A DNA stretch of 63,858 nucleotides, the filler included, from Hausera hauseri (Eukaryota), in the NCBI GenBank assembly GCA_046269625.1. It is 12 parts of 12 records of this genome, joined end to end, with 100 filler letters (N's around TTAATTAATTAA, not from the genome) between each part and the next. Parts side by side here need not be neighbours in the genome. Positions count along the whole stretch, not along the records: positions 38,919 to 42,872 come from JBJURY010861632.1; 11 more parts are not named here. One strand, 5' to 3'. Below are positions 11,322 to 62,825 of the stretch, one piece after another. Both the position numbers and the translations under genes were made by a program. Numbering within the stretch: position 1 is the first letter of the stretch; each line of letters begins with the position of its first letter. Below the pieces are notes generated by a model that had not been told where the DNA came from, ran no database searches, and saw only the letters and a program-made list of their open reading frames with translations.

Positions 11322-12991
11322 AATATTATGCCAACTGAATCTGCGAAGAGAGATTGCGATCTCTGTGAAGAAGCGCTATAGAAATAAAGAATAGAGAATG
11401 ACAGTTCTGTGAAACTACCGAGTTTTCTGTGAAAAGCGGTTCAGTTTTCCTTAGCGGAGGAACGTGTCTTTCTACAATGATATATGTGGCCACATGAGAA
11501 AAAAAGAGAAAAGAAATTCAAGTGAAGAAAATAAATAAGTTGTGTTAAAACTGCAGTAATTGTTTTTCTCTTTGTCTGAGATTTTTTGGTGAGGAGTTTA
11601 AAGTGATGTTGTCAGCCTTGGCTAAAATAACTGAACTGTGTGCACACATTAAAATTGGATGGTGGCTACTTAAATCTATAGCCAACTAAATTTTATATAT
11701 ACATATATATTTTATATATAAATAAATATATTAGTCAGTATAGTTATATTATCTAGGATCCCCGGGGAGGAGGAGAAGAAGATAGGAAAATAATAGAGTT
11801 AGAAAAGCAAACGGAATCGTTGTTGCTGTAATGAATGTTGAATGTATGTTGTCTGTCTGTAAGTATTTAATCGGCATGCCTGTATATACTGTAAAATTCT
11901 GAAATGTGCATGTTTTTGGTTATTAAATAACTTGANNNNNNNNNNNNNNNNNNNNNNNNNNNNNNNNNNNNNNNNNNNNTTAATTAATTAANNNNNNNNN
12001 NNNNNNNNNNNNNNNNNNNNNNNNNNNNNNNNNNNGGTAATAACAGAAAAAGATAAAAATAGAGTTAGAAAAATTAATCAAGAAGGTTTTATATGTATAA
12101 ATTTCTTACCTACAGATTGCCTTTTGAGTCCTGGACAACAAAAAAAGACCAGCTCTACGAAATAAAAATAAACCCGCTTCTGACGGGTAAGCTTATAATC
12201 TCTTAAAATAAATATTCGTTAGTATTGTATAATCCTTATATGGAATTATTTGTATCTAAATTCCAGGATTTAGGTTGGTAGAGAATCTACAGTCTTTTCA
12301 TAGTCCAGCAACAAATTATCAATCTTCAAATTGAGCAAAAACCAAGACATAGTCCTTACAGATTAAGACAGATAGTTGTAGTAAGAAGAGTTAAAAGATT
12401 AGAGAGAAAGAGTCTGTTCTATAGTCCTTATATAAGGTAATTCCGTCAGTGTTTTATATTACGCCGTCACCCACAATCTTGTCATCGTCCTCACCTCCGA
12501 CTCCGAATTTAAATTCGCATTATCAAGCTAAGTTATAGGTCATTCGTAGCAAACATATCAGCGATTAGGAAATTAAGATCCATAATTAGAAATTTGTATT
12601 TATTTAAATTTCAATTAATCAATATCTATATATGTTAATCACCGTTTATTTATTGTATAATCTTTAGTATTTGTCGTGCTCACGGTTGCATGGGCCCGTG
12701 TTGCCGTGAGTGTGACTAGTAGGTTAACGAAATTGTATAAAAATAAAAAAAAAAAATCGTCATAGTCATAGGTTGTATCAAAATCCGCTTTCTAAATTTT
12801 TGTATTTTTATAACAGTAGCTTAGAGGTGTTTAGTTAATAAACATTGTACATACTAATAGTCTCTTCTTAACCAAGCAAGGATTCTGAGATACGTACCTG
12901 AATTAATTTCCCCCCCTTTATTTTTATCAATCAATTCTCTTACTTACTTCTCCCTTTGCCTTTAAAAACCTTCTCCCCGCGACATAATATT

Positions 12992-18318: not shown

Positions 18319-18898
18319 TGGTAGTAGCAAAACGCACTTTGTGTGTAAACTATTGCAGAAACACCGTGACATGTTCCATTCACCGTGGTACAATCACATA
18401 TACTGCAATCAGGGTTTGACACATCGAAAATTTTGACAATTAAAATCGATTACGGTAATTGATGGGTTTGATGAGAACTGGTTTGAGATATTACGCAACG
18501 GTGACGTTATTGTGATTGACGATTTATTTCAGGAAGCCGCGAAACAATCGGACTTCAATAATCTGTTCACGAAGATTGCACGACACTGTGGTGTGACAGT
18601 TATTTTCATTACGCAAAACATGTATAATCAGTGCGGACAACATCGAACAAGAAATCTAAACGTGCACTATTTGGTGTTGTTCAAAAATCTCCGTGATCAG
18701 ACTATTGTTGATTATGTTGCACGACAAGCGTTTCCTCTCAAACGAGCCTACTGGATAGATATTCTACGAACAAGCCGCATTGATATCTGTTTATTGACTT
18801 TACACAACAGTATCCCGATGACATGCGTGTACGAAAGGACACTTTCAAACAGAAAGGTGTATGTGTCTATAAACAAATTCAAAAATCGACACTATAGA
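18319..18898 (+). pseudogene. A32/FtsK-like packaging ATPase
   Basis: GSSKTHFVCKLL (Walker A remnant), IVIDDL (Walker B), ARHCGVTVIFITQNMY...RTRNLNVHYLVLFKNLRD. Confidence 0.85.
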
Positions 18899-18904
18899 GA
18901 TAAA

Positions 18905-19090
18905 ATGAAAAATTTCCGAAAAACAATTGTTAAACGTAAACCAACCAAATATGTATCCAAGACAAAGAAACGTGCGTCAAATACATCAAAACACAACGCT
19001 ACAGTTAAGCGATTGATCAATTCAGTGCTTCGAACTACAATATCATCAGCAGCGAGACGCAGGTTACCGTCAAAGTGGCAACGATTATAA
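18905..19090 (+). CDS. Small Lys/Arg-rich Polinton protein (possible core protein)
   Basis: MKNFRKTIVKRKPTK...SKWQRL. The homologous reading frame is conserved at 44520-44695. Confidence 0.5.
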   Translation: MKNFRKTIVKRKPTKYVSKTKKRASNTSKHNATVKRLINSVLRTTISSAARRRLPSKWQRL

Positions 19091-19351
19091 ACAACTCCGA
19101 TTCGATACATCAGTATTCGTTGATTGATTGATTGAAACATGCGTTTCAAATGTTGTCAACCGTACTTTATTGCTTTGCTTAAAGCACCGTCGAGACATAA
19201 ATGGAACATGCTGCGATCATTGCCGCAATTTGTAGTAGACGATTGATGGAAATTTTGTACAATATCGTTGTAGGTCACGTTGACATTGGTAGTGGAAATC
19301 GGAATTTACTAGAGTATGAAATCAACGGAATGCGCACAGTTGACGTAATCG

Positions 19352-19741
19352 ATGATTTGGATGTGTGACTATCAAAACCGATCACAACGACAGGCAATTA
19401 AACGTCCAAAATACAAAATCGGTGCTTACAAACGTATTTCCAAAATAAGTATGACGCCATTCATTAGGAATTTCAATCAGAATTGGAGCGATGAGGCTTT
19501 CCGCATTTCAGCAATCAACACAAAACAAACACCTGTCATGTACGTTTTAGAAGATGAAAACGGTGAGGAAATACGCGTTAAATTCTACAAACAGGAACTG
19601 CATGTACTGTCCGAGAAACCCGATGTGTATCGCATTCATGAAATTCTACGTTCATGTGGCAAATGTTCGAATAAACAATATCTCGTCAAGTGGCACGTAT
19701 ATACTGCATTGAGTTGTATTTTTGCATCACAGATTCAATGA
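19352..19741 (+). pseudogene. Polinton integrase C-terminus with chromodomain-like tail; catalytic core deleted
   Basis: PKYKIG..RISK...QNWSDEAFRI...Y.LED.NGEEI..KFY.QEL...QYLVKW. Confidence 0.85.
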
Positions 19742-20789
19742 TCAGGAGCAGCATTTATTGGTACTTCATAGTAACAGATCATTATCACAACATGACGACA
19801 ATGACAATACCGCTAAACAGTTTACCATGCACTTCGACCAACCGGTCGATTTACGCCAGGGAGCCTGGAAAGTGGCTTTCACGGAATTCACATTTACATT
19901 TTCACCAATAACAATACGTCAAAACAGTGGTATTTACTTTACCCGACATTAAACATACCCTATTTTAAATTGTTGGCGAACAATCCGACACAACAACCGA
20001 TATACTCTTCGCAATTATTCGCAACAACAATTCTCGATGTATGCTTATTTTTCAAACTACCTTATGAAACGAATACATCGAAATCCCATTAAAATGCAGT
20101 TCAAATCTACAGTTGATGGTTAGGTATGGAGTTTTCAATCAGTCAATGTACACTCAAAACGTCTACAACTAGGTGGACATGTTATAAATTGAACCTTTCA
20201 TCCAATGAGGAATCCGATATTATAATAAAGTGAATTAAGTCAGTATCAGTCTTCCGTTCATATGATACCACGCGATTAATTAATGGAAACGGAACTGGAA
20301 TTGTGTGAATATGTCAAGAAAACGGCTACATAAACTGTAAAGACATGTGAAATAAATGCAGATGGTCATATTTCGTTTACACTGCATGACAATGTAACAT
20401 ATTTTGCCTTTGATGAATTATTGGCTCGGAATCTGGGTTTTCAAAACGCGAATTCTATCAAACCATCGTTGGACAATCTGTTATTGCCAAATACAAACCG
20501 CAACTCTATGGAGCGTTTCATAAAACCAACACTTTAACGGACTTAACCGAATCCGTACTCGTTGGTGGTAAACGTAAACAACTGCCGGCTTCTATCGAAC
20601 TAGAGTCTGACACGTATAACATATTGGGCGAAACTTCGCGTTAGTGTGCTCAGACCCATGTACTTATCATTGCCTCACAATATTGTGCACAGTATTTCCG
20701 TGTATATGCTTGATAAATTTTGGAAATCCATTAAATTTCTGTTAAGGTCAACGACATATTTCACGTTACATTTTCGACGTTGTCGATAA
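19738..20789 (+). pseudogene. Minor capsid/penton protein 1
   Basis: LHSNRS...NTAKQFTMHFDQPVDLRQGAWKVAFTEF and a C-terminal TLHFRR. Homologous to 46254-47205. Confidence 0.75.
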
Positions 20790-20840
20790 TAAACAAACTG
20801 CGTCATCGTTATCATCATCATCATCATCATCATTGAGATC

Positions 20841-21901
20841 ATGAGTAATTACATGGTGTTGCCGAGCAACAGTTGCCCGACAACTCGTCCGGATAATTCA
20901 GCCGGTGAATACGTTATAGATTGCATCAATCGTTTGGATTTATCTGGAGAATGGAAGGTTTCACTGACGGAATTTAACTTTCCCTACGCACCGGTGACAT
21001 TGAAAGGTAGTATGAAAATAACGTACAACAAGACTGTTACTAAAACCAAAACACATTATTCTCCTCTGAAACTTACGAACAATAAAATAACAGTTGGAGA
21101 ATCTCCCATTTGTACAACCAAAGAAAATTACAGTTCACACGGCAAGATCGGTGTTTTTATTTTAGGAGAAAACTTACATTTTATGGCAAATTTTGAATTT
21201 ACTGCTACCGCTGATTCCCATGATATGGCACAGAAATTTGGATTCAGAAATAGAGTACAAAGATAAAGATATTAAAAGTGAATATGCAGTTGGTCCAAGA
21301 TTAAGTCACGTATATTACTAGACAAGGGTGAAATTTACCTATACAGCACAAATAGTGTCAACATCATATTTATCGATTAAAGACAATGTCTACTACGAAT
21401 ATGTAGCACACCTGTCAACACTTTTCAAATCAAAAGTACAAGGAGATATTTACAGTTTTCGAATCAGATGCAAATGGGTACATTAAATTTGAACTGGCTA
21501 AGGATATTGTGGATATTTCATTGAACAAAGCTTTGGCCATGGTATTGGGTTTTGAAAAACATCGGCTTGAGGCGAATATGAAAGCGCATATTGCAACACT
21601 TAAACCAAAGCTGAAAAACGCACATCACATGCACATTTACACAAATGTCACCGAACCGATTCTGTTGGGTGGAGTACGTGTATTGCTACTCCGTGAAATA
21701 TATCCGGAAAGTAACGGGTATACTTCTGGAGATAATATCACTCTCAAGTTCCATAATCCAATGTACTTATCTGTGGCAACTACATCCATAAACAATGTTG
21801 AAGTCAATATCAGATGTGACGCGGGCTACTTTATTGAATTTTCGTACGGTACCACAACCTCTCTATCTCTTCATTTCCATCGAAACCAACAAAATTATTG
21901 A
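20841..21901 (+). pseudogene. Minor capsid/penton protein 2
   Basis: YMVLPSNS...DNSAGEY...LDLSGEWKVSLTEFNFP and IYTNVTEPILLGG...LLREI...NPMYLSV....INNVEVNIRCDAG..I.F..G.T.LSLHF. Confidence 0.85.
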
Positions 21902-22250
21902 TTCTGAAATCGCTTCCATTTATAGGAAATCCCAGCAAGGCGGTGAACTGCCGTATTTTGTTGGTAAACAGTATGGCTCTGGATGGTTGCTTACATTGAC
22001 ACGTTTAGCATTTCCAGTGTTGAAGCGTATTGGAGCCGTGACAGCAAAAACAACACATGATGTACTACATGGAAACAAATCGATTTTACCATCATTGAAG
22101 GAACACGCCTTGATAGAAATAAAAAGCGCTGTACTGGGAGTCGTTGAATCAGTAAAAAAACAATTTGCTGGTAGTGGCTTGAGAAAGCGTGGTAGATCAG
22201 CTAGCTTTTCAACTAGAAACAAACGTCGTCGTCGTACGATTTTCGACTGA
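21895..22250 (+). CDS. PZ-like small virion protein between minor and major capsid genes
   Basis: SQQGGELPYFVGKQYGSGWL.TL.R.A.P.LK...AGSG...RRRTIFD. Position and pattern are typical of Polintons. Confidence 0.65.
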
Positions 22251-22265
22251 TTGATTGATAGACAG

Positions 22266-22979
22266 ATGACATCTGCAAAATTTGAACTGTGTATATTTGA
22301 CAAAGCCGTGTCACAAGTTACTGACAATGCAGCATTTGAAGAAATCTACCCCGTTGATGCTGTTTCAACGGACGATAACATTGACATTCAATTCAACATT
22401 ATGACATCTGACAATGATTATCTCGATTTGAAAGATACGTTACTGTATGTAAGTCGTTAAAAAGGATGCATTAACGGTTCTCGCTGCAACAGATACTGTC
22501 ACACCGGCAAATTATCTTTTCCTCACAATGTTCCAGGAGGCTTCACTGACTCTAAACAGTGTCAAAATTGAAGGCAACACCAGTCTATACAGTATCATAA
22601 CACTCATTGAAACGGCTCTGTATTACAGTGCAGACACAAAAACGACTCATTTGACGAAAACCATCGGATATGACGCTACTGCAGCAAACCAGCAGGCATG
22701 GGTGGCAGAATCAAATGCGCTTACAATTTGTAGACCGCTGTACTTTGACTTTTTCGATCAGCCAAAATACCTACTTCCCGCTGTTAAAGCCATGATTTGA
22801 CTCACACGCAGCGACAATGTCTTTGCTTGAAAACCGCAGTTGCAAATCTGAAGCCCATACTGAAAATTACCGAAGCACGATTATACGTACGTCGTGTAAA
22901 AGTAGAACCATCTGTGCTCATGGGACATCGATTGGGCTTGGAAACACAAAATGCCTGTTACCCGATACAACGCACAGAA
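22266..22979 (+). pseudogene. Double jelly-roll major capsid protein, 5' part
   Basis: KFELCIFD...EEIYPV...IQFNI..SDNDYLDLKDTLLYV...FFDQPKYLLP...ITEARLYVRRVKVEPS...NACYPIQR. Confidence 0.85.
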
Positions 22980-38654: not shown

Positions 38655-38958
38655 AGTTAGGGTCGATGGGAAGCGATGAGCTTTCGTTTAACGCCAGTTT
38701 TGTACAATGAGTTGTACTTCGTTTGGGGTACAATCGGTCGATGTTGTGTGATCACGTTTGATGACGTTAGTGAGTGTAGCCGGATTGGTTTCGACGGCAT
38801 TTGTATGAGTTTTAGCCGNNNNNNNNNNNNNNNNNNNNNNNNNNNNNNNNNNNNNNNNNNNNTTAATTAATTAANNNNNNNNNNNNNNNNNNNNNNNNNN
38901 NNNNNNNNNNNNNNNNNNAATAATTAATTAAAAAGGACTAATTTTTAAAAAAAATGGG

Positions 38959-39094
38959 AGTAATTGTATAAGGAGGGTTATGGGTCGGTTTTTCAATTTT
39001 TTTAAAAAGTTTTCATGAATGATCGGTGGCGAACGGATGAAAATTTTTTTAAAAAATTGAGGGGCCGGTCCATAACTCTCCTTATACAACTACT
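38959..39094 (+). ncRNA. Long RNA stem-loop (58-bp stem, 20-nt loop)
   Basis: Arms 38959-39016 and 39037-39094 pair without gaps: 48 Watson-Crick pairs, 8 G-U pairs and 2 mismatches on the + strand. Confidence 0.65.
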
Positions 39095-39109
39095 GAAAGT
39101 GGAATAAAC

Positions 39110-40700
39110 ATGTATTAAAACAAAACAAAGAGCGACGAGGTTGGATGAACTAACGAAGGAGCTCGAAGTCTATATAAACAAATATGCTTTTACTGAGTCA
39201 GAGATCAAGAATAAACGAGAATTCGTACAAAGATGGCAAAGAAATGTAATTATAGAATTAACAGATTACCACCAAAAAGGATTCATCGATTCTAATGAAT
39301 TAGGCAAGCTATTGAAATTGATTCAGTAAGTCTGTGGAAACGGCATAGGTTTCCGAACTACGCAGATAAAAGAAATACAACCAAGATTGAAAGAAATTAG
39401 AGAAAACGTACAGAGAACAAAGACAGTTTTGATAGACCATGGACCTCCTGAAGCCGGAAATGAACCTGAATGGGATGCATATTTCGACGCAATACTTGTC
39501 GAAAAACCCATGACTCCAGTACAATTAAACAAGATAGAAACATATTTGCAGGACAGGTGACTCAATGTGGACATGTTTCTAAATTCAGCGCTAACTGAAA
39601 AAGACTTAATTGAACTAATTAACGTACATATTACAGAAAGTAAGTTAAGACAACTTATTCCTACCTTAACTAAATTATCTAACAAAAACACGATCTATAG
39701 AACGGTGCCGAAACTTTTAATAAGGAAGTATGCTAAAATCTTGAGGGCTAAACCTAAAATGGCGATAAAAGTAATGGTATCATCCGAATGGGTGGACGAA
39801 AAAAAATGCGAATTAACTACATATTCCTATGTGAGAAATGTAAGAGAATGACTGATAAACAACGGCGGAACAAACGCGTAAAACTACAGATTTTACTTTA
39901 GAGGTAGAATACTCGACGAACTAGAACAATTAATAGATGTTGGGATCCTTCCCGACGAAATAAACCGGATAGTGGCAGTAATGGCTAATGAACAGACAAA
40001 GCAAGAAGCTACACGTAAGGCCAAAACGAAGCAATGCGTAGGAAAAATTATGGGAGTCCGAAACGCTGCAATGTATTTTGAGTACTTACAAACGGATGAG
40101 GATAAGGAACTATACGACATAAACTTAGTGCCACTGAGTGAAGTAACCACTAAGGGTCCAAGACCGAAACGGCCAGTAGGTAGGCCCAAGAAATCGCGAG
40201 AAGAAGTGGACTATAATGGAGAATTGATTGCAGAATTGAGACAGATGTCGATTCCGACTCTTAGTGCAGACAACGAAGAATTAAACAAGTTAATGAAGAA
40301 TCTAATACGGATTGTAAATTGTTCCAGTCTTCTAGGTGATGTATTAGATGGTAAAGGAAAGATAATATTCGATGCAGCCAAAATGATGCGATGTTCACGT
40401 TTCAAACTATCAAAAAGTAACCTAACCGATGAATCGGTAATCGAAAAGACTATGATATGGAACACCAGCAAGGAATTGAGAAAATTATTATTATATATAG
40501 CTATCAAAATAAATCCTAATCGAGAGAGTGAAATCAATAGAGCTGTAAGCTTAGCACGTATGGCAGCAAGACGATTGCCCTACGAAGTAAACTGGTCAAG
40601 ATTATTTGACATCGAAGAAGACAGATGAAACGGTAATAAGCTCGACGATATGTTACGTAATTTAACAACAGCGAACGTTAGATGCCGGAAGAATGAATCA
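39110..40700 (+). pseudogene. Unknown ~500-aa helical protein with AT-hook-like motif, in frame with the downstream glycoprotein
   Basis: ORFs 39141, 39567 and 39972 share one frame and are separated only by point stops. Motif KRPVGRPKK. Confidence 0.6.
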
Positions 40701-40706
40701 AATTGA

Positions 40707-42805
40707 CTGATTAGCCTACTCACTTTGATGATGCTAATTAAGCATATAAGCGCTGTAACTGTCTACGACTGCGGTAAGTTCAAACTAGGACAGAGATATT
40801 CCTTAATGAATCTTGAAATATGCGAAGATGCCAGACCATACAAATTGGCGACAAAAGAGAAAAATTACTTTCTATATCAGCAGCAGGAATTGATATCGCT
40901 AGATGGAATAGAATGTATGCTGAGACGATGGCGTAATATTTTTCTCTGTGTTTTGGTTCATGGACATTCATCTATAATCAAACCAACGACTCCACTAATT
41001 CCAATGGACTTAGAACGCCAAAACGCCAAGCAAGCCAAGGAAACTGGGAAAATACAATGTGACAGTATGCAATTAGAGATGCAGCCAGGAAAAATAATTA
41101 GGGCATATAAAATAGTGGCCGGAAGATTGGATATGCATAGTGGACATTGTAATGGAGCAGAATACGACACCGGGAAGGGATTGGAGGCAAACGTAGTGGT
41201 TGTGGATTTCTACAAATCAGAAATGCGATCACAGGTGGTAATGTTCCATAGTGTCACCAAACTATATACAGAAAATCAAAAATGTCATTTACAAGACGGG
41301 ATCTGTACTTTTAGAAGTTCGGTTATAATATGGGAACCTCCCTCTGGAAGAAATTGTAATATTATTAAAATTAAAGAACTAAAGTTCAATGAGACTACAG
41401 GAAAGCGATATGTGGACAAATCAGAAACTAATTCGAGGACACGTGAGGATGTATCAGAACACTCTACACCTACTATATTAATTTCGGATCAGCATGAATT
41501 GAAATTTATTAAAAAAGAGATGATTTCTCGCTGTGATGTAGTGATGTTTGCTACGAACTATGAGGCGCTTTTCGTCGCAGAAACGGAGATAAGTGCGAAA
41601 ACTTATAAGCTAGAAATGCAGGATGTCCGCATCGAAGATTACCTGACGAATAGCGACAATTACTTTTAATACAAAGGACAAGTCGGAATAACGGAATTAT
41701 ATCATAAAATGATAATGAATGACTGCAAATTGGATACGGAAATCATGAGAACTAAAATGGCTCTGATATATGCAAACCCAGAATTAACTTTACCAATAAT
41801 TCCAATGAGAGAAGGAATTTTTGGTCGGGGAACAGGCGAAGTATTGCTAACTTATGAATGTGAAAAGAGAGATGTACCCATTAACGTGGAAGAAAAACGT
41901 TGCATTCAAGAACTTCCTGTTATTTACCAAAGTATTCCGAGATTAGCTACACAGCTGACGAGAGTGTTATTGGATAACGCTACCCAACCGACCTTCCTTA
42001 AAAATTGTAAAGCAAGCTTAGGAGAACCTATGTTTAGACGCAGTGACACAGATTGTGTTAGCTTGCCAAATGGAGGTATTATTGCCGCACCAAACAAATT
42101 AAGAGGAACAAACCTCGCAAAAGGAATTACAGACAATAAATTTCAAGACACTTCATCGAAATCATATATAGACCGAAGGAAACTGAGGCCTTTAGACAAT
42201 TCCTTGCCTTTCCACAACAACGAAAACATAAGTTAAACCGAGCTATGGCCTTGGTAGTAGACGACACCCGATATCAAGCTAAATCGGAATCTTTACTCGG
42301 TGTAAACCATTATCAGCGAGTAACAACCGAAATAATTTGCAAAATGTGGGAAAGATTTCTGATATTCGAAAAAGCTGCATCCGGATTCTAAGCGATATAT
42401 TTTTTGATACAGATGATTAAAGCAGTCATCCAAGCAGTAATAAATGGCTATGAAATATTTACGTTGACTGGATTTTCATGTAAAATATTAACGGCGATTA
42501 TAACGCCCTTTTGAAAGTTTTTAAAAGCATATGAAGAGAATAAATGGAAATCTGACGTAGAACGCCATGTTGGATATTACCACCGTAAAAGAAAAGGAAG
42601 GCCTACATTTCTGTACAAGCGGAAATTTATAAAGCATAACGCGGGAAGAAATAATTCAGATGATGAAGATCCTAAGGGAGGCGAAGCATTTTCAGGAATA
42701 AACCGACATAAGGCATACTCTGTCATTAAAACGCCGTTGCCTATGATACCTCCTACCGCCCCATTTTACAAAGATTGTGACAAACGATCCATGAATTCGT
42801 ATTAG
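40707..42805 (+). pseudogene. env: Class III fusion glycoprotein (chuvirus G/gB-like env), degenerate
   Basis: Signal LISLLTLMMLIKHISA then VYDC...YSL...EIC. GHCNG..Y. C....G.C......W. GEVLLTYEC...CIQELPV.Y...TRVL. Membrane-proximal W.RF..F...SGF.AIYFLIQMIKAVI..VING near 42350-42510. Confidence 0.8.
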
Positions 42806-43855
42806 ACAGAAATCTATAAAAGGACAATTAATGTAGAAGACCTTTACAAAGGAACGAAACGTTAGGGGATCTNNNNNNNNNNNNNNNNNNNNNNNNNNNN
42901 NNNNNNNNNNNNNNNNTTAATTAATTAANNNNNNNNNNNNNNNNNNNNNNNNNNNNNNNNNNNNNNNNNNNNAAGCGAGCCCCGTACCGGACCTATTCGG
43001 ACTTCCTGACAGTACGGAAGCTGTTGCAACAAAGCCTTTTCTTGCGCACCTTGTCAGGTTGGGACGAGATGACCCCTACTCCTTACTTGCGGGAACGCTC
43101 CATCGGTTCTACGACGACGGAGAAAATTGACGACTCTGACTCGTTGGTTTTCCTGCCAGTTTTCTTAAGATTGATGGTGGCAGCCGACCGCCTTTACAAA
43201 TCACTGGCTCTCTCGGAGAGCCACTTGATTCCGGTACCCCGAATTACTGAACAGCGGCATGCAAGGACGTCGAGCTCCGACGATATGCCTAACCTGTGTC
43301 GCAGACGTCGTTTAGATCCGTCACGACGAAAACCTGCACCGTTGGATTCAAGTTCGAACGACGCTTCGACTTGTACACGCCGAAGTCTCCGAACTGATCC
43401 GGCACTCTCATCGAAGGACGAATCATACGCCTCGACGGATGCCGTTGACGATGTGAATAAAAGTGTTTATATTATTTGTTTGTTCTTTTTATGTTTCGTA
43501 TGTCAGTCATTTTATTCGACTGCTTTTATAAGTTGACTCCAGGTTTTATGTTTCGGAGGTCGATTCGTAGGGAAGAAACCCCTGAACCATAAAACGACAC
43601 TTTCCCGATTGAAATATGATGCATGTAAAATCTAGTGGACACTTGAGAACATACTATCTCGGCTTCCATTATTTAAAAGGTAGTGTGTTAATGTCACACT
43701 CGGTAACATGTCCTCGATAGTTGATATTAGCTAACATTATGGAAACAGTGTTTATACTATAGCTATATATATGTGTGTATGTATATATATATGTGTGTAA
43801 CACGATTATAAACAAATTATGTGAGGAAAGGTTGTATTATTTTTACTATTATTAG

Positions 43856-44514
43856 ATGAAGCTGCAGAATGATGCCATTTTCCAGATTGTAGGTCCCAGT
43901 GGAAGTTGCAAAACGCACTTTGTTTGTAAACTATTGCAGAACTACCGTGACATGTTCCATTTACCGCGGTACAATTACACATACTGGCATCAGGGTGTTG
44001 GTGATGATGATGAGTCCGGTTTGACATTTCGGGAATTCTGTAAACTGAAATCGATAGCGATAATTGATGGGTTTGATGCGAACTGGTATGATCGATTACG
44101 AAACGATGATGTTATTGTCATTGACGATTTATTTTAAGAGGCAACGAAACAAACCGACTTCAACAACCTGTTCACAAAGATTGCACGGCACCGCGGTATG
44201 ACGGTTATTTTTATTACGCAAAACATGTTTCATCAGAGCGGACAGCATCGACCAAAAAATATAAACGTACACTATTTGGTGTTCTTCAAAATCCCCGTGA
44301 TCAGACTATCATTGATTATGTTGCACGACAAGAATTTCCTCACAACCGGGCCTACTTGATAGATGCATATCATGATGCTACGACAGAGCCACACGGATAC
44401 TTGTTCATCGACTTTATACAACAGTGGCCCGATGACATGCGTGTACGAACAAACATTTTCAATCAAAAAGGTGTATGTGTCTATAAACAAATTCAAAAAT
44501 CGACGACACGATAG
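43856..44514 (+). pseudogene. A32/FtsK-like packaging ATPase
   Basis: IVGPSGSCKT (Walker A), IVIDDL, RH.GMTVIFITQN, HGYLFIDF. Confidence 0.9.
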
Positions 44515-44730
44515 TGATAATACGAAGAATTTCCGAAAAACCATTGTTAAACGTAAACCTACCAAGCGGGTGCCCGGCAAGAAACGTGTATCAAAGCGAA
44601 CCACCGCTACAGTCAAGCGATTAAACAATTCTGTGCTTCGAACAACAGCAGCAGCAGCTAGACGCAAATTATCGTCACAGTGGCAACGGTTATAAACAAC
44701 TACGTCTCATCAACATCAATACGTCAAAAA

Positions 44731-45054
44731 ATGCGATTCAAACGTAGTCAACCGTACTTTATTGCTTTGCTCAAGGCACCTACGAGACATAAGCGAAACA
44801 TGCTGCGATCATTCTCACAGTTTGTAGTGGACAATTTGATGGAAATTTTATAAAATATTGTTGTGGGTCACGTTGACATTGGTAGTAGAAAGCGCAGTAT
44901 ACTAAAGTATCGAAAACGACTCATCGGCCTTGCCAACGCCAGTACTAAATGACTGAAACGAGAGGTTATGTACCAGCAAGATGGCGGATTCCTTGGTTCA
45001 ATTCTACCGGTTGTCACGTCATAACTGGGTTGATTCATTGCTGGAACAGTTTAG
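44731..45054 (+). pseudogene. Conserved small Polinton protein with QxGGFL motif
   Basis: MRFKRSQPYFIALLKA...EIL.NIV.G...QQDGGFLGSILPVV. Partial copy at 19139-19320. Confidence 0.6.
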
Positions 45055-45165
45055 TATAAACAATGAAGGTAAGTATATAATGATTCGGCAATATGGGTGC
45101 ATGTTTTTCATCTTTCTGTCCCAGTTTACCGAACCTTTCGTTTACGTTTCGTTCTGATTGTTGTA

Positions 45166-46257
45166 ATGCAAGCAGAAAAACCGACACCATCGACGGAAAC
45201 AACGATAAACGATGTGTAGTTCAACCCACGTGATCCTGTCGGCTATACTGGCGTCGACAAACTGCCAAAGATTGTCAAACAGACTCGGCAACACACCAAA
45301 CGTTGGCTTAGGAAACAGTTAGCATACAGCCTAAACAAACCGATAAGAAGGTGGTTTTCAACTCGTGCATACCGTGCTGCCGGTGTAACTAATGTATGGC
45401 AAATGGATCTGATGGAAATGATTCCGTACGCCAGCATTAATGATGGGTATCGATACGTGCTGATATGTGTTAATGTGTTTAGTCGTTTTGCACGTGCAAT
45501 TGCCGTAAAATCTAAATCCTGTAAAGAGATTGCCGACGCTGTTCAAACACTGATACATCAACAATAACAACAACAACCGAAGCATTTACAAACGGATTTG
45601 GGTAAGGAATTCTACAACCCCCACGTTGCAGCGGTCTTGAAACGGTTCGGCGTAAACCAATACTCAGTGTTTTCCCAATACAAGGCTGCACTCACTGAAC
45701 GATTTAATCAAACATTCCGCGGTCGCTTAAACAAATTCTTTACGAAGCAAGGCAACAAGCGCTGGATAGATGTACTGCTGGATATTATTCATGCATACAA
45801 TCATTCGACACGCCGTAATATTAATGGATTACGGCCGGTTGACGTAATCGATGATTTGGACATGTGGCTTTATCAAAACAACCGAACAACACAACGAGGA
45901 CGACAGGCAATTAAACGTCGCCCAAAATATAAAGTCGGTGATTATGTACGTATTTCAAAGCTTAATACGACGCCATTCATAAAGAATTTTAGTCAGAACT
46001 GGAGCGATGAGGCTTTCCGAATTTCAGCAATCAACACAAAGCAAAGTCCGGTTATGTACGTTTTAGAAGATGAGAATGGTGACGAAATACATGGCAAATT
46101 TTACGAACAGGAACTGCAAGTACTATTGGAAAAACCTAACGTGTATCCTATTCAGAAAATTCTACGTTCACGTGGCAAAGGTTAAAATAAACAATATCTC
46201 GTCAAGTGGCACGGATACACTACACCGAGTTGGATATTTACATCGCAGATTGAGTGA
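45166..46257 (+). pseudogene. Retroviral-type (rve) integrase with chromodomain-like tail
   Basis: DDE motifs WQMDL, LQTDLGKEF and TERFNQT, plus QYLVKWHGY. Three premature stops. Confidence 0.92.
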
Positions 46258-47205
46258 TGATTATTTATTTGGTACTTGATAGTAACAGATCATTATCACA
46301 ACATGACGACGACGACGCCGACGACGATACCGCTAAACAGTTTACCGTGCACTTAAACCAACCGGTCGATTTACGCTACGGAGCCTGGGAAGTGGCTTTA
46401 ACGGAATTCATGTTTACATTTTCACTAATGACAATAAGTCAGAACAGCGGTATTTACTTTACTCGACAAGAAACTTACCCTATTTTAAGTCGTTTGCGGA
46501 CGATCCGACACAATAACCGATATTTTCTTCGCAATTATTCTCGAGAAAATTTTTCGGTTTATGCTTATTTTTCAAACTACCGTATGAAACTAAAGCATCG
46601 AAATCCCATGGAAATGCAGTTTAAATCTATAGCTGATGCTCAGGCATGGGGTTTTCAAGCAGTCAATGTAAACTCAAAACGTCTACGGCGAGGTGGACAT
46701 GTTATAATTGGTAAAAAATTGGACTTTTCATTTGATGCAGAATCTGATATTATAGTAAAGTGGACTAAGTCAGAAGCAGTCTTACTCTATTATACTATAC
46801 CACATAATTTAATAATGGAAACGGAACTGGAATTGTGTGAATACATCAAGAAATCGGCTGCATTAGCCGTAAAGACACGTGAAATAAACGCATATAATCG
46901 TATTTCGATTACACTACATGACAGTGTTACATTTTTTGCCTTTGATGAATTATTGGTTCGAAATCTGGGTTTTCCCCAACGTGAATACAATCAAAGCATT
47001 GTTGGACAATCTATTGTTGCCAAATACAAACCACAACTTTATGGAGCATTTCACTAAATCAACATTGTAACGGACTTAACCGAATCCGTACTCCTTGGTG
47101 GAGAACGTAAACAACTGCTGGCTTCTAACGAACTGGATTCTGACACGTACAAAACATCATCATCGGGTGAAACTGTTCGCGTTATTATGTTCAGACCTAT
47201 GTACT
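46254..47205 (+). pseudogene. Minor capsid/penton protein 1
   Basis: YLVLDSN.S...TAKQFTVHLNQPVDL..GAWEVALTEF and INIVTDLTESVLLGG..KQLL. Confidence 0.8.
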
Positions 47206-55143: not shown

Positions 55144-55473
55144 AAGAAGACGGCACATGTTGCAACGCTTAAACCCAAACTGAAAACTGGACTAAGTCAA
55201 ATGTACATTTATGTGAACGTCACAGAACATATTTTTGTGGGTGGAGTACGTGTACCGCTACTCCGTGAAATTTACCCGGCAAGCAGCATGTATACTGCTG
55301 GCGATAATGTCACTGTCAAGCTCGATAATCCAATGTACCTACCTATTGCATCTACATCTATAAACAATGTTAAAGTGAATATCCCATGTGACGCGGGCTA
55401 CTTTATTGAATTTCCATACGGTACCACAAACAGTCTAACTCTTCATTTCCGTGGAAACCAACAATATGATTGA
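55144..55473 (+). pseudogene. Minor capsid/penton protein 2, C-terminus
   Basis: MYIYVNVTEHIFVGGVRVPLLREIYP...NPMYLPI...SLTLHFR. Confidence 0.85.
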
Positions 55474-55828
55474 TTCTTAAATCGTTTCCATTTACAGTAA
55501 ATCTCAGTAGGGCGGTGACCTGCCGTAATTCGTTGGTAAACAGTATGGCTCTGGATGATTGCGTACATTTGCACGCTTAGCATTTCCGGTGTTGAAGCGT
55601 ATTGGAGCCGTGGCAGCAAGAACAGCACAGGACATACTATATGAAAACAAATCGATTTTACCATCACTGAAGGAACACGCCTTGACAGAAATAAAAAGCG
55701 TTGCACCGGCAGTCGTTGAATAAATCAAAAACAATTCGCTGATAGTGGCTTGAGAAAACGTGGTAGATCAGCTGGCTTTTCAACTATAAGCAAACGTCGT
55801 CGTCGTACGATTTTCAATTTATAGACAA

Positions 55829-56550
55829 ATGGCATCTGCAAAATCTAAATTGTGCATATTTGACAAAGCCGCACCATAAATTGTTATTGACAATGCGGCA
55901 TTTGAAGAAATCCAATTCAACATTATAGCATCGGACAATAAACATCTCGATTTAAACGATACGTTTCTGTATGTAAAAGTCATTGTTAAAAAGGATGCAT
56001 CAACGGTTCTCGCTGCAACCAACATTGTCATACCGGCCAATTAACTTTTCCTCACACTGTTTCCGGAGGTTTCACTGAATCTAAACAGCGTCAAATTTGA
56101 AGGCAAGATCAGTCTATACATTATCAAAGCACTCGTTGAAACGGCTCTGAACTACAGTGCGTACACGAAGACAACTCACTTGACAAAAACCATCTGATAT
56201 GACGTCAGGCATGGGTGGCAGAATCAAAAGCTGAAATGCCTACTGTCCCGTGTTAAAGCCATGATTCGGCTCAAACGCAGCAACAATGTCTTTTGTTTAA
56301 AAACCACAGATGCACAGCTTAAACTCATACTGAAAATTACCGAGGTACGATTATACGTACGACGTGTAAAGGCAGAACCGTCTGTGCTCATGGAACATCG
56401 ATTGGGCTTGGAAACGCAAAATTCATGTTACCCGATACAACGCCCAGAACTCGTCTTTTACACCATACCGAAAGGTTCAACTACGTTTTTCAAAAATGCA
56501 CTGTTTATGACATGCGAATACCGAAATTTGTGCTCGTTACATTTCAAACA
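55829..56550 (+). pseudogene. Major capsid protein, internally deleted
   Basis: MASAKSKLCIFD...LDLNDTFLYV...IRLKRS...LYVRRVK...YPIQR...IPKFVLVTF. Confidence 0.85.
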
Positions 56551-58765: not shown

Positions 58766-59594
58766 TCATCTCCGCAGCTTGCTTTCTTTGGCTGCTGGCT
58801 TAAATATGTTAACGTGGACTTTAAAGACTACAATATTCTTCTTTAGACAAACATTAGATATGTCCACTTTTTCTACTTCATATGGTCCCTTGTATGGTCT
58901 ATCCAACTTGGATGTTTTACCTTTCTTACTTAACGGTGTGTACAACATCATCTTATCTCCTACTTTAATCATTGGTTGCTTAGTCTTCATCGATAATACT
59001 TCTTGTATTTCATTTTATAACCCTTCTGGTTGTCCTTTATTACTTTATACTCTAATTGGAGACGTTCCTGCATTAATTGTTTATATTCTTCTATTTCCAT
59101 TAAATGTGATGTGGGCCGCGCATTGAAATCCAAATCAATTTGTAGTCTGGCATCTCTTAAATACATATCAAAAGGTGTCTCTTTAGTAGCTTAATGTACG
59201 GATGTTCGATTCAAAAAGACACGCGCATTGAGGTACTCATCCAAATCGTCTTGTCTTACATTAACTACTGTTTGTAGCTTTTCTTTCAAATCTCCTATGT
59301 ATCTTTCAACCGTTCCGTTGTTCTCCGGATGTCCCGGAGTTGAACGCAACTTCAATATCCTCATAATATCGTATATTGCTTGCATTAAATTGCCAGTTAA
59401 GTTGGATGCTTGATCGGTTAATAGAATTCGAGGAGCTCCATAATTAAATATTTTTTCTACGAATTTTTCGGCTATCGTTTCAGCCTTCATACCTGGCATG
59501 GGCAATGCGACGACCTATCAAGTGCAATAATCAATAAATACCAGGATATATTCATTCCCGTTTCTTGTCATTGGTAACGGTCCAGTTATATCCA
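58766..59594 (-). pseudogene. pol: Gypsy integrase core and GPY/F module
   Basis: DITGPLPMTRNGNEYILVFIDY...GAPRILLTDQASN...HPENNGTVER...KLDRPYKGPYEV. Confidence 0.92.
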
Positions 59595-59694: not shown

Positions 59695-62640
59695 CTTTCC
59701 AGGAACTCTTTTATACGGTCTTCTACTAATTTACTCAGTCTCGTTAATACCCGGGACCATTTGTCTAGCTGGTTAGCAATATTCGGCTTCGCCAATATTG
59801 TTTTGCCCAGCATTTTGTATGCGTCTTCTAACTCATTATCTGGACCTTTGATGAAACTAATGATCTGGTATACGTAGTTGAATTCGTCCTTATATTCATC
59901 AATTTCAAGGATACAGGCCTTAATTATGTTNNNNNNNNNNTGTGTCTCGTCGTTGTCCATTTGCATGATCCTATTTCTCAAACTATATATCTGTGACCCT
60001 TTTTCGTTTTCGATTTTAATACGACTTTGCAGGCTTGTATACTGTTTCGATGCGGTGGAGGGAATTTTTATCATCTCCATTAATGGTGTGATATCTAGCA
60101 AGCTTATACTCAGCAATTCCAGATCAATTTGTTTTCGTTCCCAGACCGGTTTTTTTAAGCCTCCTAACCATTTCGAATCTGATTTCATTCATGTCGAGCT
60201 CCAGGTTACCTGTTACCCTCTTTAGTTTTGGATTGGCTTCTAATGTACTTAATAATACTTGGGCTTTCTTAATTCTTGCTTCCACATTCTCTATATGTTT
60301 ATCCCACGCTTCGGGAAATTTTACTCCACTTTTTATCCATGTTTCTAATTTATATATCTAATTTTCTAGCGTTTCTGGAGGCACTTCCTCAGGTTGCCCT
60401 AGGTATATAGCTTCGCACAGTTTTCCTTCAATATATAATTTTATTTTCTTGTATAATCTTTCTATAAATTGCTGCTGTTTACCAGAAATGTCTGCTTGTT
60501 CGTTCATCTTTTTAAGTTTCTCTAAGTTCTGTTGCAATACGTCTGGGTTGAGGCAATTAATTCTTATTCTCTTTAATTCCTCGGCATTTTTCCACGAGCG
60601 TCTAATTTTCCTCTGTTTCTGATCGACCCTCTCACTTTGTTCTGTCTCTTTTTCACTAGTAGGTTGTAAATATATCTCATTAATTTTATTCACAGATTTT
60701 GTTAACTCTTCTATTCCAACAGGGTTAACTAACCAAATTTCAGGGGTATCCAAGGTGAACTTTACATCGCTTCCTAGAGCAATTTCGGCGTTGTTTGTCC
60801 TGTCTGACTTTCCCTTATTCATCGGGGATCGTGATCGATCTTTACGTTTCAGCTTTAATGATGGACTGCGACCCCTATTCTTTGTTATTTTGAGTATTAG
60901 TTGTTCCATAAATTCTTTTTCTTCGTCAACCTCTATAGTTTTGTCCACTTTTTCTACAACATATTCCGGTTCTGCATATAAATCTACTTTATTTGGAGTT
61001 TGGGCCTTCTCGGTTTTCTCTATTCCTTTATTAGACGCAGATACATTCTTTTTCCTTGCCATATCGGTAAACCTTAGCGGGGCTATTGAGTGTTCATATT
61101 CGGTTTCTGGCTCGCGAAGTCCATAGTATACTTCTAGTAAGCGTAATTTTTGTTCATACTCATTTCTGGCCATTAAAACTTTGGGATCGTTAGTATCAGG
61201 TCGAGCCCTCAAGAAAAGTCGCAAATCTTGAATTTCAATAATCGTACCTGTGTCCTTACGAATACCATAAATTATTTCTAGATTTTCATTCCTAATTGCA
61301 TTAGTTTTACTAGGCTGAACAATTGAAACACTTCGCGGATTTGGACAGGACCTTACTACGTGTCCTTCTTGTCCGCAGGTGTAACGAATTAGGTTACCAT
61401 TTCTACCGACCCTTTGTCCTCCATCTTCATTTCTTGGAAATTTCGATCTGCTCGGATTTCTATTAAAATTCTGGTTCTACGAAACTTGTCTAGTGTCTCC
61501 ATTCTGACGATTATCATAACTTCGATTATCGCTGTGCCGGTTTCCATTGTTAAAACTTCTAGGACCGTTTGAACGTCTATCCGTACTATAGTTTGATCTG
61601 TTAGATGCGCTATTACGGTCATTGTCAAAATTCCGATTATCATAACGATTACTTCTATAATCATTGTTATTATTCTGGTTTCTGTTTCCATAATTTCGGT
61701 TAAATCGCCTATCTTTCTTCCGTGATTATCATTCCGATTTCTATTATTTCGATCACATCGATCATTATATCGGTCGTTTTTGTCATTACTTTTAACATAT
61801 CTATCCAGTGACATTTCCAAGTCCTGGGCCAACTGCAAGGTTTTATCAAAATTCTCAGGTCTTGCTAAAATCAAATGTTTCACTATATCTCTAGACCAGA
61901 TGCCATTTGTTAACTGCGTCATCATCATAACGTCCTAATCTGGAGAGCTTAACTTCTGTGCAGCTTTGCGCTTTGCGTCACTTTAGCCTTAGCTATATTG
62001 GCTATTCTTAAAGTACTTGCATATCTGTTCGCAAGTTTCTTCAATGCAAATGCAAACTGGGTTATCTACTCACCCTTTTGTTGCACCCTATTCCAGAAGA
62101 CCATGAGCTTTTGTTGTGGAGTAACTGTCGGCGATAATTTTCGGTTTAAGGCTCTTACAAGGGAGTACCACGTTTTCTTTTCATCGTCAGTGAGATAACT
62201 ATAGGTATCAGCGGCCAAATGCTTCAAATGTAGTGACAAGCGTTTAATCATTACGTTAGATGCGAGTCCAGCACCTTCTGCGTGCAACTTATAAGTTCTT
62301 AAGAATTCATTAAATTCGTCAGAGTCTCCGTCGTACGCCGACAGATTCAGAGAGTCTAATGTAAAAATGTCCAGCTTCTGCGCTACTGCTTGATTTTCGA
62401 CCATGTTTTCAACGTTTATTAAATTTTGTTTATTTAATGTACGGATTGTAATTCTCTTATCAGGAAATTTAAACTCTATAGGCTGTACAGCAGCGTTTAA
62501 ATCAGTAAGTTCAATGTTAACTAAATTCGTCTCGGATAAGGTTCGTCTATTCAACGTTTTATACTGCCTATAAACTTTGTTGCGCGTTTCTCGTAGGTTA
62601 ATATTTTCTTTACCGTTTCGAATTACGTTTAAGTTATCAT
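59695..62640 (-). pseudogene. gag: Gypsy gag with R/N/D-rich linker, zinc knuckle and long C-terminal extension
   Basis: AYDGDS.EFNEFL...LSLHLK..AA..Y...TW..L...L...RVQQKGE capsid motifs. YTCGQEGHVVRSC knuckle is in frame with ORF 60358-61224. Confidence 0.75.
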
Positions 62641-62825
62641 CTGACTTATGCCTATCAATATTCGTTATTATTTCTATAGTATGTCTTTAATTTTGCTGAG
62701 GGTTTTCTTACAACTGCCGAATTTTAAGTTCACAACAATTCTATAATCAATTATTTGATGTAGTGGTGCTGATCGCCAATATGTCGTTACTTTTCACTAA
62801 CAGTCAAGTTTAGCAAGTGCAAACT

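Follow-up and report, generated by a model that had tools for sequence, protein, structure and literature searches.

The window analysed here is a stretch of 63,858 nucleotides from Hausera hauseri in which 12 unrelated records are split by 11 artificial spacers, and it does not represent one molecule. The record at 38919–42872 (3,954 nt) carries a long hairpin close to its 5′ edge, followed by a long broken reading frame and a gB-type envelope gene (Table 1). Because only 40 nt lie between the hairpin and that edge, there is almost no upstream context. The record is a broken copy truncated at both ends, and gag, pol and LTR are all missing from it; it ends at 42872, about 70 nt past the envelope tail, and no protease was seen before the end. 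No long direct repeat was detected in the record, itself a fragment, a tRNA gene was not found, and a bacterial promoter/terminator scan, a type not apt for this host, returned no match.

Table 1. Features of the hairpin record and of the spacer at its left edge (positions along the window)
Feature	Position	Strand	Basis or remarks
Artificial spacer N44-TTAATTAATTAA-N44	38819..38918	.	Nothing contiguous 5′ of 38919
AT-rich 5′ flank, 40 nt, closed in all three frames	38919..38958	+	Stops 38921, 38925, 38929, 38939, 38946
TSD-like 7-mer, left copy	38951..38957	+	6/7 identical to 39096–39102
5′ arm of 58-pair stem	38959..39016	+	Pairing, fold
AUGA overlap, stem top	39015..39018	+	Long-frame ATG (30 codons, stop 39105) over stop of another frame
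Loop, 20 nt	39017..39036	+	Pairing
3′ arm of stem, G4 run 39061–39064 facing U4	39037..39094	+	Pairing, fold
TSD-like 7-mer, right copy	39096..39102	+	6/7 identical to left copy
Broken pre-env part of long frame	39108..40706	+	Stops 39327, 39558, 39849, 39879, 40626, 40704
ATG of the earlier note, two codons then stop	39110..39118	+	Out of frame with long frame
Predicted ubiquitin-like domain	39759..39989	+	Model read with X at stops, local pLDDT about 62–78
AT-hook-like basic motif	40167..40193	+	Motif
Broken gB-type (class III) envelope gene	40707..42511	+	Stop 41667, frame change near 42160, stop 42389
Envelope tail with PTAP motif 42752–42763	42515..42805	+	Sequence

Several of the 12 records contained pieces of reverse transcriptase (RT), integrase, protein-primed polymerase or adenovirus-type protease, and none of the other records belonged to the family of the hairpin record at the DNA or six-frame level. 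A broken retroelement on the minus strand at 59695–62686 has Gag, a zinc knuckle and a linker of more than 500 codons in a record that ends before any protease; it is possibly a gag-first relative of the element with the hairpin, with no significant match between the two. At 58775–59592 (minus strand) lies an integrase remnant with 42% identity to the relatives P0004 and P0005, in a record that also has an adenovirus-type protease match. Three records with common stretches at 83–90% identity (18319–22979, 44018–47157 and 55197–56449) have polymerase B and protease matches and resemble Polinton-type pieces. When 5 other retroelement-bearing records of the window were scanned, no stem longer than 23 bp was found; a 23-bp stem is present at 12668–12721, upstream of a gag-pol element in another record.

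The two arms of the hairpin paired without gaps over 58 positions, and the 10 non-Watson–Crick positions comprised 8 G–U, 1 A–C and 1 U–U on the plus strand, with 4 of the 8 G–U adjacent (38989–38992 with 39061–39064). This confirmed the stem as the earlier note had described it, including the UUUU facing GGGG. Folding of both strands, the check proposed there, gave −70.5 kcal/mol for the plus-strand RNA (z −14.1, equalled by 0 of 200 shuffles) and −53.7 kcal/mol for the minus strand, about 17 kcal/mol weaker; with DNA parameters the values were −37.3 and −33.7, and the gap shrank to 3.6. Among 1,744 sampled 136-nt plus-strand windows the hairpin was the most stable, and all 8 G–U had a pair probability of at least 0.90 in their sequence context. 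The longest perfect Watson–Crick run in the stem was 12 bp. A third copy of a T-run/A-run palindrome, at 38940–38955 just outside the stem, did not compete with it in folding. The best Rfam match, MIR9563, reached 47.3 bits against a gathering score of 90, which does not place the hairpin in a known microRNA precursor family; sub-threshold microRNA matches occurred on both strands, as any long hairpin gives. With 10 of 58 positions differing between its arms, the hairpin is unlikely to be an amplification chimera.

Downstream, the long frame begins at 39108 and has 7 stops over 1,011 codons before a frame change near 42160. In comparison, the hairpin region of this copy has 3 stops in 53 codons (p 0.011) and is non-coding. 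The earlier note had placed the hairpin directly upstream of an env-like polyprotein starting at the ATG at 39110. We found that this ATG does lie 15 nt after the stem, but that its frame differs from the long frame and closes after 2 codons; the glycoprotein begins near 40707, another 1.6 kb downstream. Because the ATG is out of frame and about 530 codons, ubiquitin-like domain included, precede env in the long frame, the link of the hairpin to env fails. A profile built from the Gag-to-Env regions of 6 relatives matched residues 162–304 of the pre-env part with 29.1 bits (best of 1,000 shuffles, 8.5); owing to this partial homology the hairpin is placed on the gag side of that region. It may sit between gag and the long frame, or a gag-less derivative may begin with it, as the linker lengths of the relatives vary. 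No Pfam family was found above cut-off in the pre-env part, and no Gag motif in the 190 nt before the pre-env frame, where the record is cut.

The structural model of 39759–39989 matched 7mrj_B (Z 11.1, rmsd 1.6 over 73 residues) in a list dominated by ubiquitin-like chains, suggesting that this segment folds as a ubiquitin-like domain. The single-sequence model of 39561–39848 was poor (pLDDT 51). The basic motif at 40167–40193 is one that we call AT-hook-like, and similar GRP motifs were present in the relatives P0004, P0008, P0009 and P0013. The envelope gene was identified by PF24664 on three pieces (E 7e-16, 3e-10 and 6e-4) and by Foldseek, where the top matches of a model read with X at stops were herpesvirus gB (E 2e-6), and tblastn with relatives' proteins aligned to it as well; the long read-through P0154 matched no Pfam family, though its pieces match PF24664. 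We take the PTAP in the envelope tail to be a late-domain-type motif. A PSAP occurs at a similar place in P0010, 1 of the 12 relatives checked. When four relatives (P0006, P0007, P0013 and P0020) were scanned, weak Bcl-2 matches below the Pfam cut-off were seen just before env in three (E 0.00096, 0.055 and 0.2), and P0013 gave a weak ubiquitin match. There was no Bcl-2 match in the corresponding part of the hairpin record, where model confidence is low. A literature search returned nothing on ubiquitin-like or Bcl-2-like domains before env in such elements.

The type of element was read from its relatives. The best of 243 relatives were 27–33% identical, and most of the top ones were long polyproteins. 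Among 14 relatives scanned, protease and/or RT followed the glycoprotein in 10, RT in 5, and Gag motifs preceded it in 3. Two or more aspartyl-protease-like stretches lie after env in P0004, P0006, P0008, P0009, P0015 and P0017. A metagenome scan yielded 1 locus from at least 593 stretches. The complete relative L001, which is distant (26% identical to the query), encodes gag-env-pol as one unbroken frame of 2,693 codons (L001 440–8521); it contains no stem longer than 18 bp, and no LTR pair was found within 9 kb. Beyond its integrase, L001 carries additional C-terminal sequence resembling a secreted or membrane domain. DNA of the hairpin record's family was not found in viral contigs (by protein, by alignment or by arm patterns) or in GTDB or phage records. 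None of 100 metagenome stretches retrieved with the record's own peptides was confirmed, word-index protein searches returned nothing for the two halves and matched the middle region of P0013 only to itself, and ESM Atlas gave no usable match.

In the nearest relatives env precedes protease, RT, RNase H and integrase in one polyprotein, and a GAG-ENV-POL order is described in PMC13524379 (Chary and Hayashi, eLife) for gB-type errantiviruses of Nematoda, Bryozoa and Platyhelminthes. We assign the gene of the hairpin record to a Ty3/gypsy element of GAG-ENV-POL type with a gB-type envelope, a label based on domain order and on the description in that paper. The gB-type envelope, the polyprotein relatives with protease or RT after env and the multi-copy family are shared with the errantiviruses described there, whereas the hairpin record is a broken fragment. 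The main text of PMC13524379 names no RNA stem, MITE, ubiquitin or Bcl-2 domain, and its other spreadsheets may list more. In a literature search covering largely open-access papers, no description of such a hairpin in GAG-ENV-POL elements was found. The glycoprotein family (PF24664) is also that of the chuvirus-like glycoprotein insertions and BEL/Pao Anakin elements (PMC7642597); unlike the Anakin elements, the nearest relatives here have the env-first polyprotein order.

One public run (X1) contains the stretch, with a share of 0.36; no RNA data set was listed as containing it, which has no bearing on expression. In this run 12,427 contigs matched the record at 80% likeness or more, covering 30 of 30 bins, mostly at 80–95% identity, and the hairpin record is therefore one decayed member of a high-copy repeat family. 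The two bins over the hairpin ranked 9th and 20th of 30 in depth; depth cannot separate a part of the element from a distinct, moderately repeated MITE.

The strand bias of the wobbles was evaluated under several null models. With transitions only, the 8:1 split gave a two-sided p of 0.039, and 5:1, obtained when the U4/G4 run was counted as one event, gave 0.22. When transversions were included, p was 0.016 at the family-wide transition share of 0.75 (0.15 with the run as one event) and 0.0004 at the share of 0.45 seen among near-fixed differences, a set biased to transversions (0.016 with the run as one event). The plus-strand excess reported in the earlier note is thus present, but its strength had been overstated (two-sided p 0.0004–0.04, or 0.016–0.22 for one event). 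A run of 4 among 10 mismatches in 58 positions had a probability of 0.024, which makes four neighbouring wobbles of one type an improbable product of point decay. The premise that neutral decay should be balanced between strands held: 40 near-fixed differences between this copy and others (40 of 1,238, none of them inside the hairpin) comprised 9 G–U-type and 9 A–C-type transitions and 22 transversions, and the family-wide transitions were balanced as well (A>G 243, T>C 240, C>T 205, G>A 241). Because the copy-specific transitions are balanced 9:9, a host-strand mutation bias does not explain the G–U excess, and since neutral DNA decay at the locus is strand-balanced, the excess most likely arose in an RNA phase. 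We read it as a real but moderate RNA-phase signal that comes largely from one cluster, and judge such an origin likely, as an estimate rather than a computed value. The further step from this bias to selection on plus-strand RNA structure does not follow, because A-to-I editing by ADAR, once fixed by reverse transcription, gives the same signature; a maintained function of the hairpin we would put a little short of even, again by estimate and not by computation.

Decay of this copy contributes to the mismatches. From the stops, decay since the frame died was about 4.7–6.5% per site, for which 5–8 new stem changes are expected (range 3–16). Several mismatches are therefore probably later noise, and later decay could in principle account for all 10; the 2 non-G–U mismatches seen, against 4–5 expected under decay, had a probability of 0.13–0.21. 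A single copy does not reveal in which direction the changes went. A decay simulation, in which 14 of 7,752 stems were G–U-rich and 115 A–C-rich, was set aside, its rates not being true mutation rates.

By the ADAR neighbour rule, edited adenosines avoid a 5′ G. The wobbles did not follow this rule overall, with a 5′ G at 3 of 8 wobbles versus 5 of 35 unchanged A, a difference opposite to the one expected (p 0.15), although the U4/G4 cluster fits it, as an A after a G is unchanged there. These data bear on the possibility that fold-back template switching in a founder copy, during reverse transcription or repair, produced the hairpin as a non-functional inverted duplication whose wobbles came from ADAR or a processive deaminase, plus later decay. 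The short 20-nt spacer would suit such an event, as would the long frame that stays open across the 3′ arm, 30 codons from the ATG at 39015, the microhomology offered by the T-run/A-run repeats, and the 5 of 8 wobbles that, taken as edited A, fall within or next to A runs. We nevertheless regard it as very improbable: the ADAR neighbour rule fails over the stem as a whole, 35 A–U pairs are unchanged, long A runs included, the loose ends listed do not accumulate in number at the stem top, and the 7-mer that flanks the hairpin is left unexplained.

This 7-mer resembles a target-site duplication (TSD). The pair of copies bounds an element of about 138 nt (38958–39095), and the chance of a 6/7 match, from random position pairs in the record, was 1.5% for the nearest 3 boundaries and 4.6% for all 14; the reading came from a scan of 14 boundaries and requires a terminal G–G mismatch and one internal mismatch. 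A TA also occurs at 38961 and 39091, which is uninformative because it is palindromic. The earlier note had set against its own reading a dispersed MITE with TSDs, unlinked to env, and with this 6/7 match a TSD-like sequence does flank the hairpin. Like MITE and foldback elements, the hairpin is short and non-coding, with long inverted arms; unlike them, it has a one-strand G–U excess that is not expected from DNA decay, and dispersal and a partner transposase are only hypothetical here. A dispersed MITE or foldback element that inserted into this copy after integration and decayed as DNA, its G–U excess being chance plus one clustered event, would fit these flanks and arms. Later decay alone can give about 10 changes, and p reaches up to 0.22 when the U4/G4 run counts as a single event. 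In two contigs the outer arms are joined and about 50 nt of the hairpin top are absent, from between the 17-nt direct repeats at 38995 and 39042; contigs that lack the top in this way resemble shorter MITE members. However, 8 of 10 mismatches fall on one strand (two-sided p at most 0.016 under point decay), and no second copy of the hairpin was found in the window. No site at which many contigs start or stop was among those listed, 2% of placed contigs continued into unlike sequence, and one contig (depth 3.9) joins the right flank at 39097 to 42184 in env. The contig evidence comprises 6 of 1,365 loose ends, none of those listed lying at the stem ends, and at most 21 of 90 joints, and joints at this likeness often arise from repeats; they are thin hints that link the hairpin with other loci and, weakly, with env. 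We consider a MITE that decayed purely as DNA distinctly unlikely.

Another reading is that the stem is a native cis-acting RNA element of the lineage under selection, acting as a gate between gag and the downstream frame (by AUGA stop-restart or a shunt-like bypass) or as a packaging, dimerisation or export signal. It is in line with the plus-strand RNA being 17 kcal/mol more stable while the DNA folds lie 3.6 apart, and with the position of the hairpin on the gag side of the relatives' Gag-to-Env region. Furthermore, the ATG at 39015 belongs to the long frame and, at the top of the stem, shares bases with a stop codon, which would suit stop-restart control. That stop closes a 28-codon open stretch in the other frame, and the first two bases of the AUGA are paired. 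The overlap was spotted post hoc and open stretches of this length are common; it could be a coincidence. Stem-plus-uORF shunts and stop-start overlaps are described in passages of PMC5902531 for pararetroviruses, foamy virus and non-LTR elements.

The details of these known layouts were compared with the hairpin. According to PMC2241666 and PMC5902531, a ribosome shunt requires a short ORF that ends before the stem, followed beyond the stem by a productive AUG, and in RTBV and RTSV the short ORFs end 7–8 nt before the stem (PMC5902531). As in the pararetrovirus and foamy-virus shunt leaders of these two papers, a stable stem is followed here by an A-rich stretch and an AUG. Unlike them, the hairpin has no short ORF that ends before the stem in the visible 40 nt: the 5′ flank contains the T-run/A-run palindrome, an A AAA AAU heptamer (38949–38955) and a sole, 5-codon ORF from the ATG at 38954, which ends 11–13 nt inside the stem, and the AUG at 39110 does not open the long frame in this copy. 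In these respects the visible sequence of this copy does not fit a shunt layout. A −1 frameshift was considered separately. Its signal consists of a slippery heptamer a few nucleotides before a stem, and the A AAA AAU, of a kind frequent in A-rich DNA, lies upstream of the stem, 3 nt from its base and 8 nt from the first unbroken helix; a frameshift readout does not fit either, as no open frame runs through the stem after a slip (3 stops in 53 codons). The lack of a shunt layout and of a frameshift readout counts against a native element, as does the single gag-env-pol frame of L001 and several other relatives, which need no gate, and L001 lacks a long stem. The TSD-like flanks would have to be chance. 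A native signal is in our view unlikely, though a serious contender.

The stretch might also be read as an LTR end, with a U-tract and purine run followed by AGT...ACT termini. LTR ends of errantiviruses and lentiviruses show such termini and such a tract pattern, and here T5-A8-TGGG stands directly before AGTA and the stem ends in TACT. A purine tract should, however, precede the 3′ LTR, but coding sequence follows, and a second copy is absent from the record. The TGG 5 nt downstream precedes an AT-rich stretch unlike the tRNA ends in rows of an eLife table (PMC13524379). This reading is hardly credible.

A long RNA hairpin thus lies at the non-coding start of a fragment from a decayed, multi-copy retrotransposon that carries an envelope gene, and this hairpin is a candidate small foldback insertion whose pairing was kept or edited as RNA. 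Given the flanking 7-mer, the non-coding region and the lack of a stem longer than 18 bp in L001, a foldback insertion is favoured over an ancient lineage-wide signal; the unbroken gag-env-pol frame of L001 without such a stem is what would be expected if the hairpin were a lineage-specific addition, though L001 is distant. We infer that a foldback insertion was captured in the RNA of the GAG-ENV-POL-type element and gained its wobbles in an RNA phase, with later decay on top, a scenario that we prefer tentatively and hold at less than an even chance. The depth of the hairpin bins and the contigs of run X1 that join the outer arms, or 39097 to env, count in its favour. Against it count the weakness of the G–U bias if the U4/G4 run was one event (p 0.016–0.22), the later decay that could by itself supply all 10 mismatches, the ADAR neighbour rule, which the wobbles do not follow, the two mismatches in the TSD-like reading and the thin contig evidence for the joint with env.

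In the foldback scenario, a short MITE-like sequence of roughly 138 nt, its inverted arms 58 nt long, would have inserted upstream of the pre-env frame, in non-coding sequence of a Ty3/gypsy element of GAG-ENV-POL type, and duplicated 7 nt of the target. The hairpin would then have passed through reverse transcription within the element's own plus-strand RNA, a phase in which G–U accumulated and A–C did not, through selection on pairing, through ADAR edits copied to DNA, or both. After integration, neutral decay of this copy would have added a few more mismatches. As RNA, the hairpin would form a very stable duplex that might block scanning or elongating ribosomes ahead of the downstream frame, and it could be a substrate for host double-stranded-RNA enzymes; the wobbles would interrupt the DNA palindrome so that no perfect run exceeds 12 bp. 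A comparable effect is known from engineered G:U hairpin-RNA transgenes in plants, in which all C are changed in one arm (PMC9263138) and the G–U likewise keep the RNA duplex and break the DNA inverted repeat. This is a likeness and not a membership: those constructs are designed, whereas the 8 wobbles in the 58-pair stem are natural. As a long shot, one may imagine that a lineage of gB-envelope GAG-ENV-POL retroelements co-opted the foldback insertion as a translation gate, the AUGA-topped stem splitting the polyprotein and metering the ubiquitin-like, Bcl-2-like and envelope product, with the G–U keeping the RNA duplex while breaking the DNA palindrome.

RNA signals of GAG-ENV-POL errantiviruses seem to be little described, the main text of PMC13524379 naming none and literature searches listing nothing about them. 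A high-copy family with a long, wobble-rich stem would offer hundreds of copies on which counts could separate the selection, editing and neutral decay of an RNA helix. Should the stem be just a decaying MITE, it is ordinary. The ubiquitin-like domain before env, together with the Bcl-2-like stretches of the relatives, may outlast the hairpin in interest.
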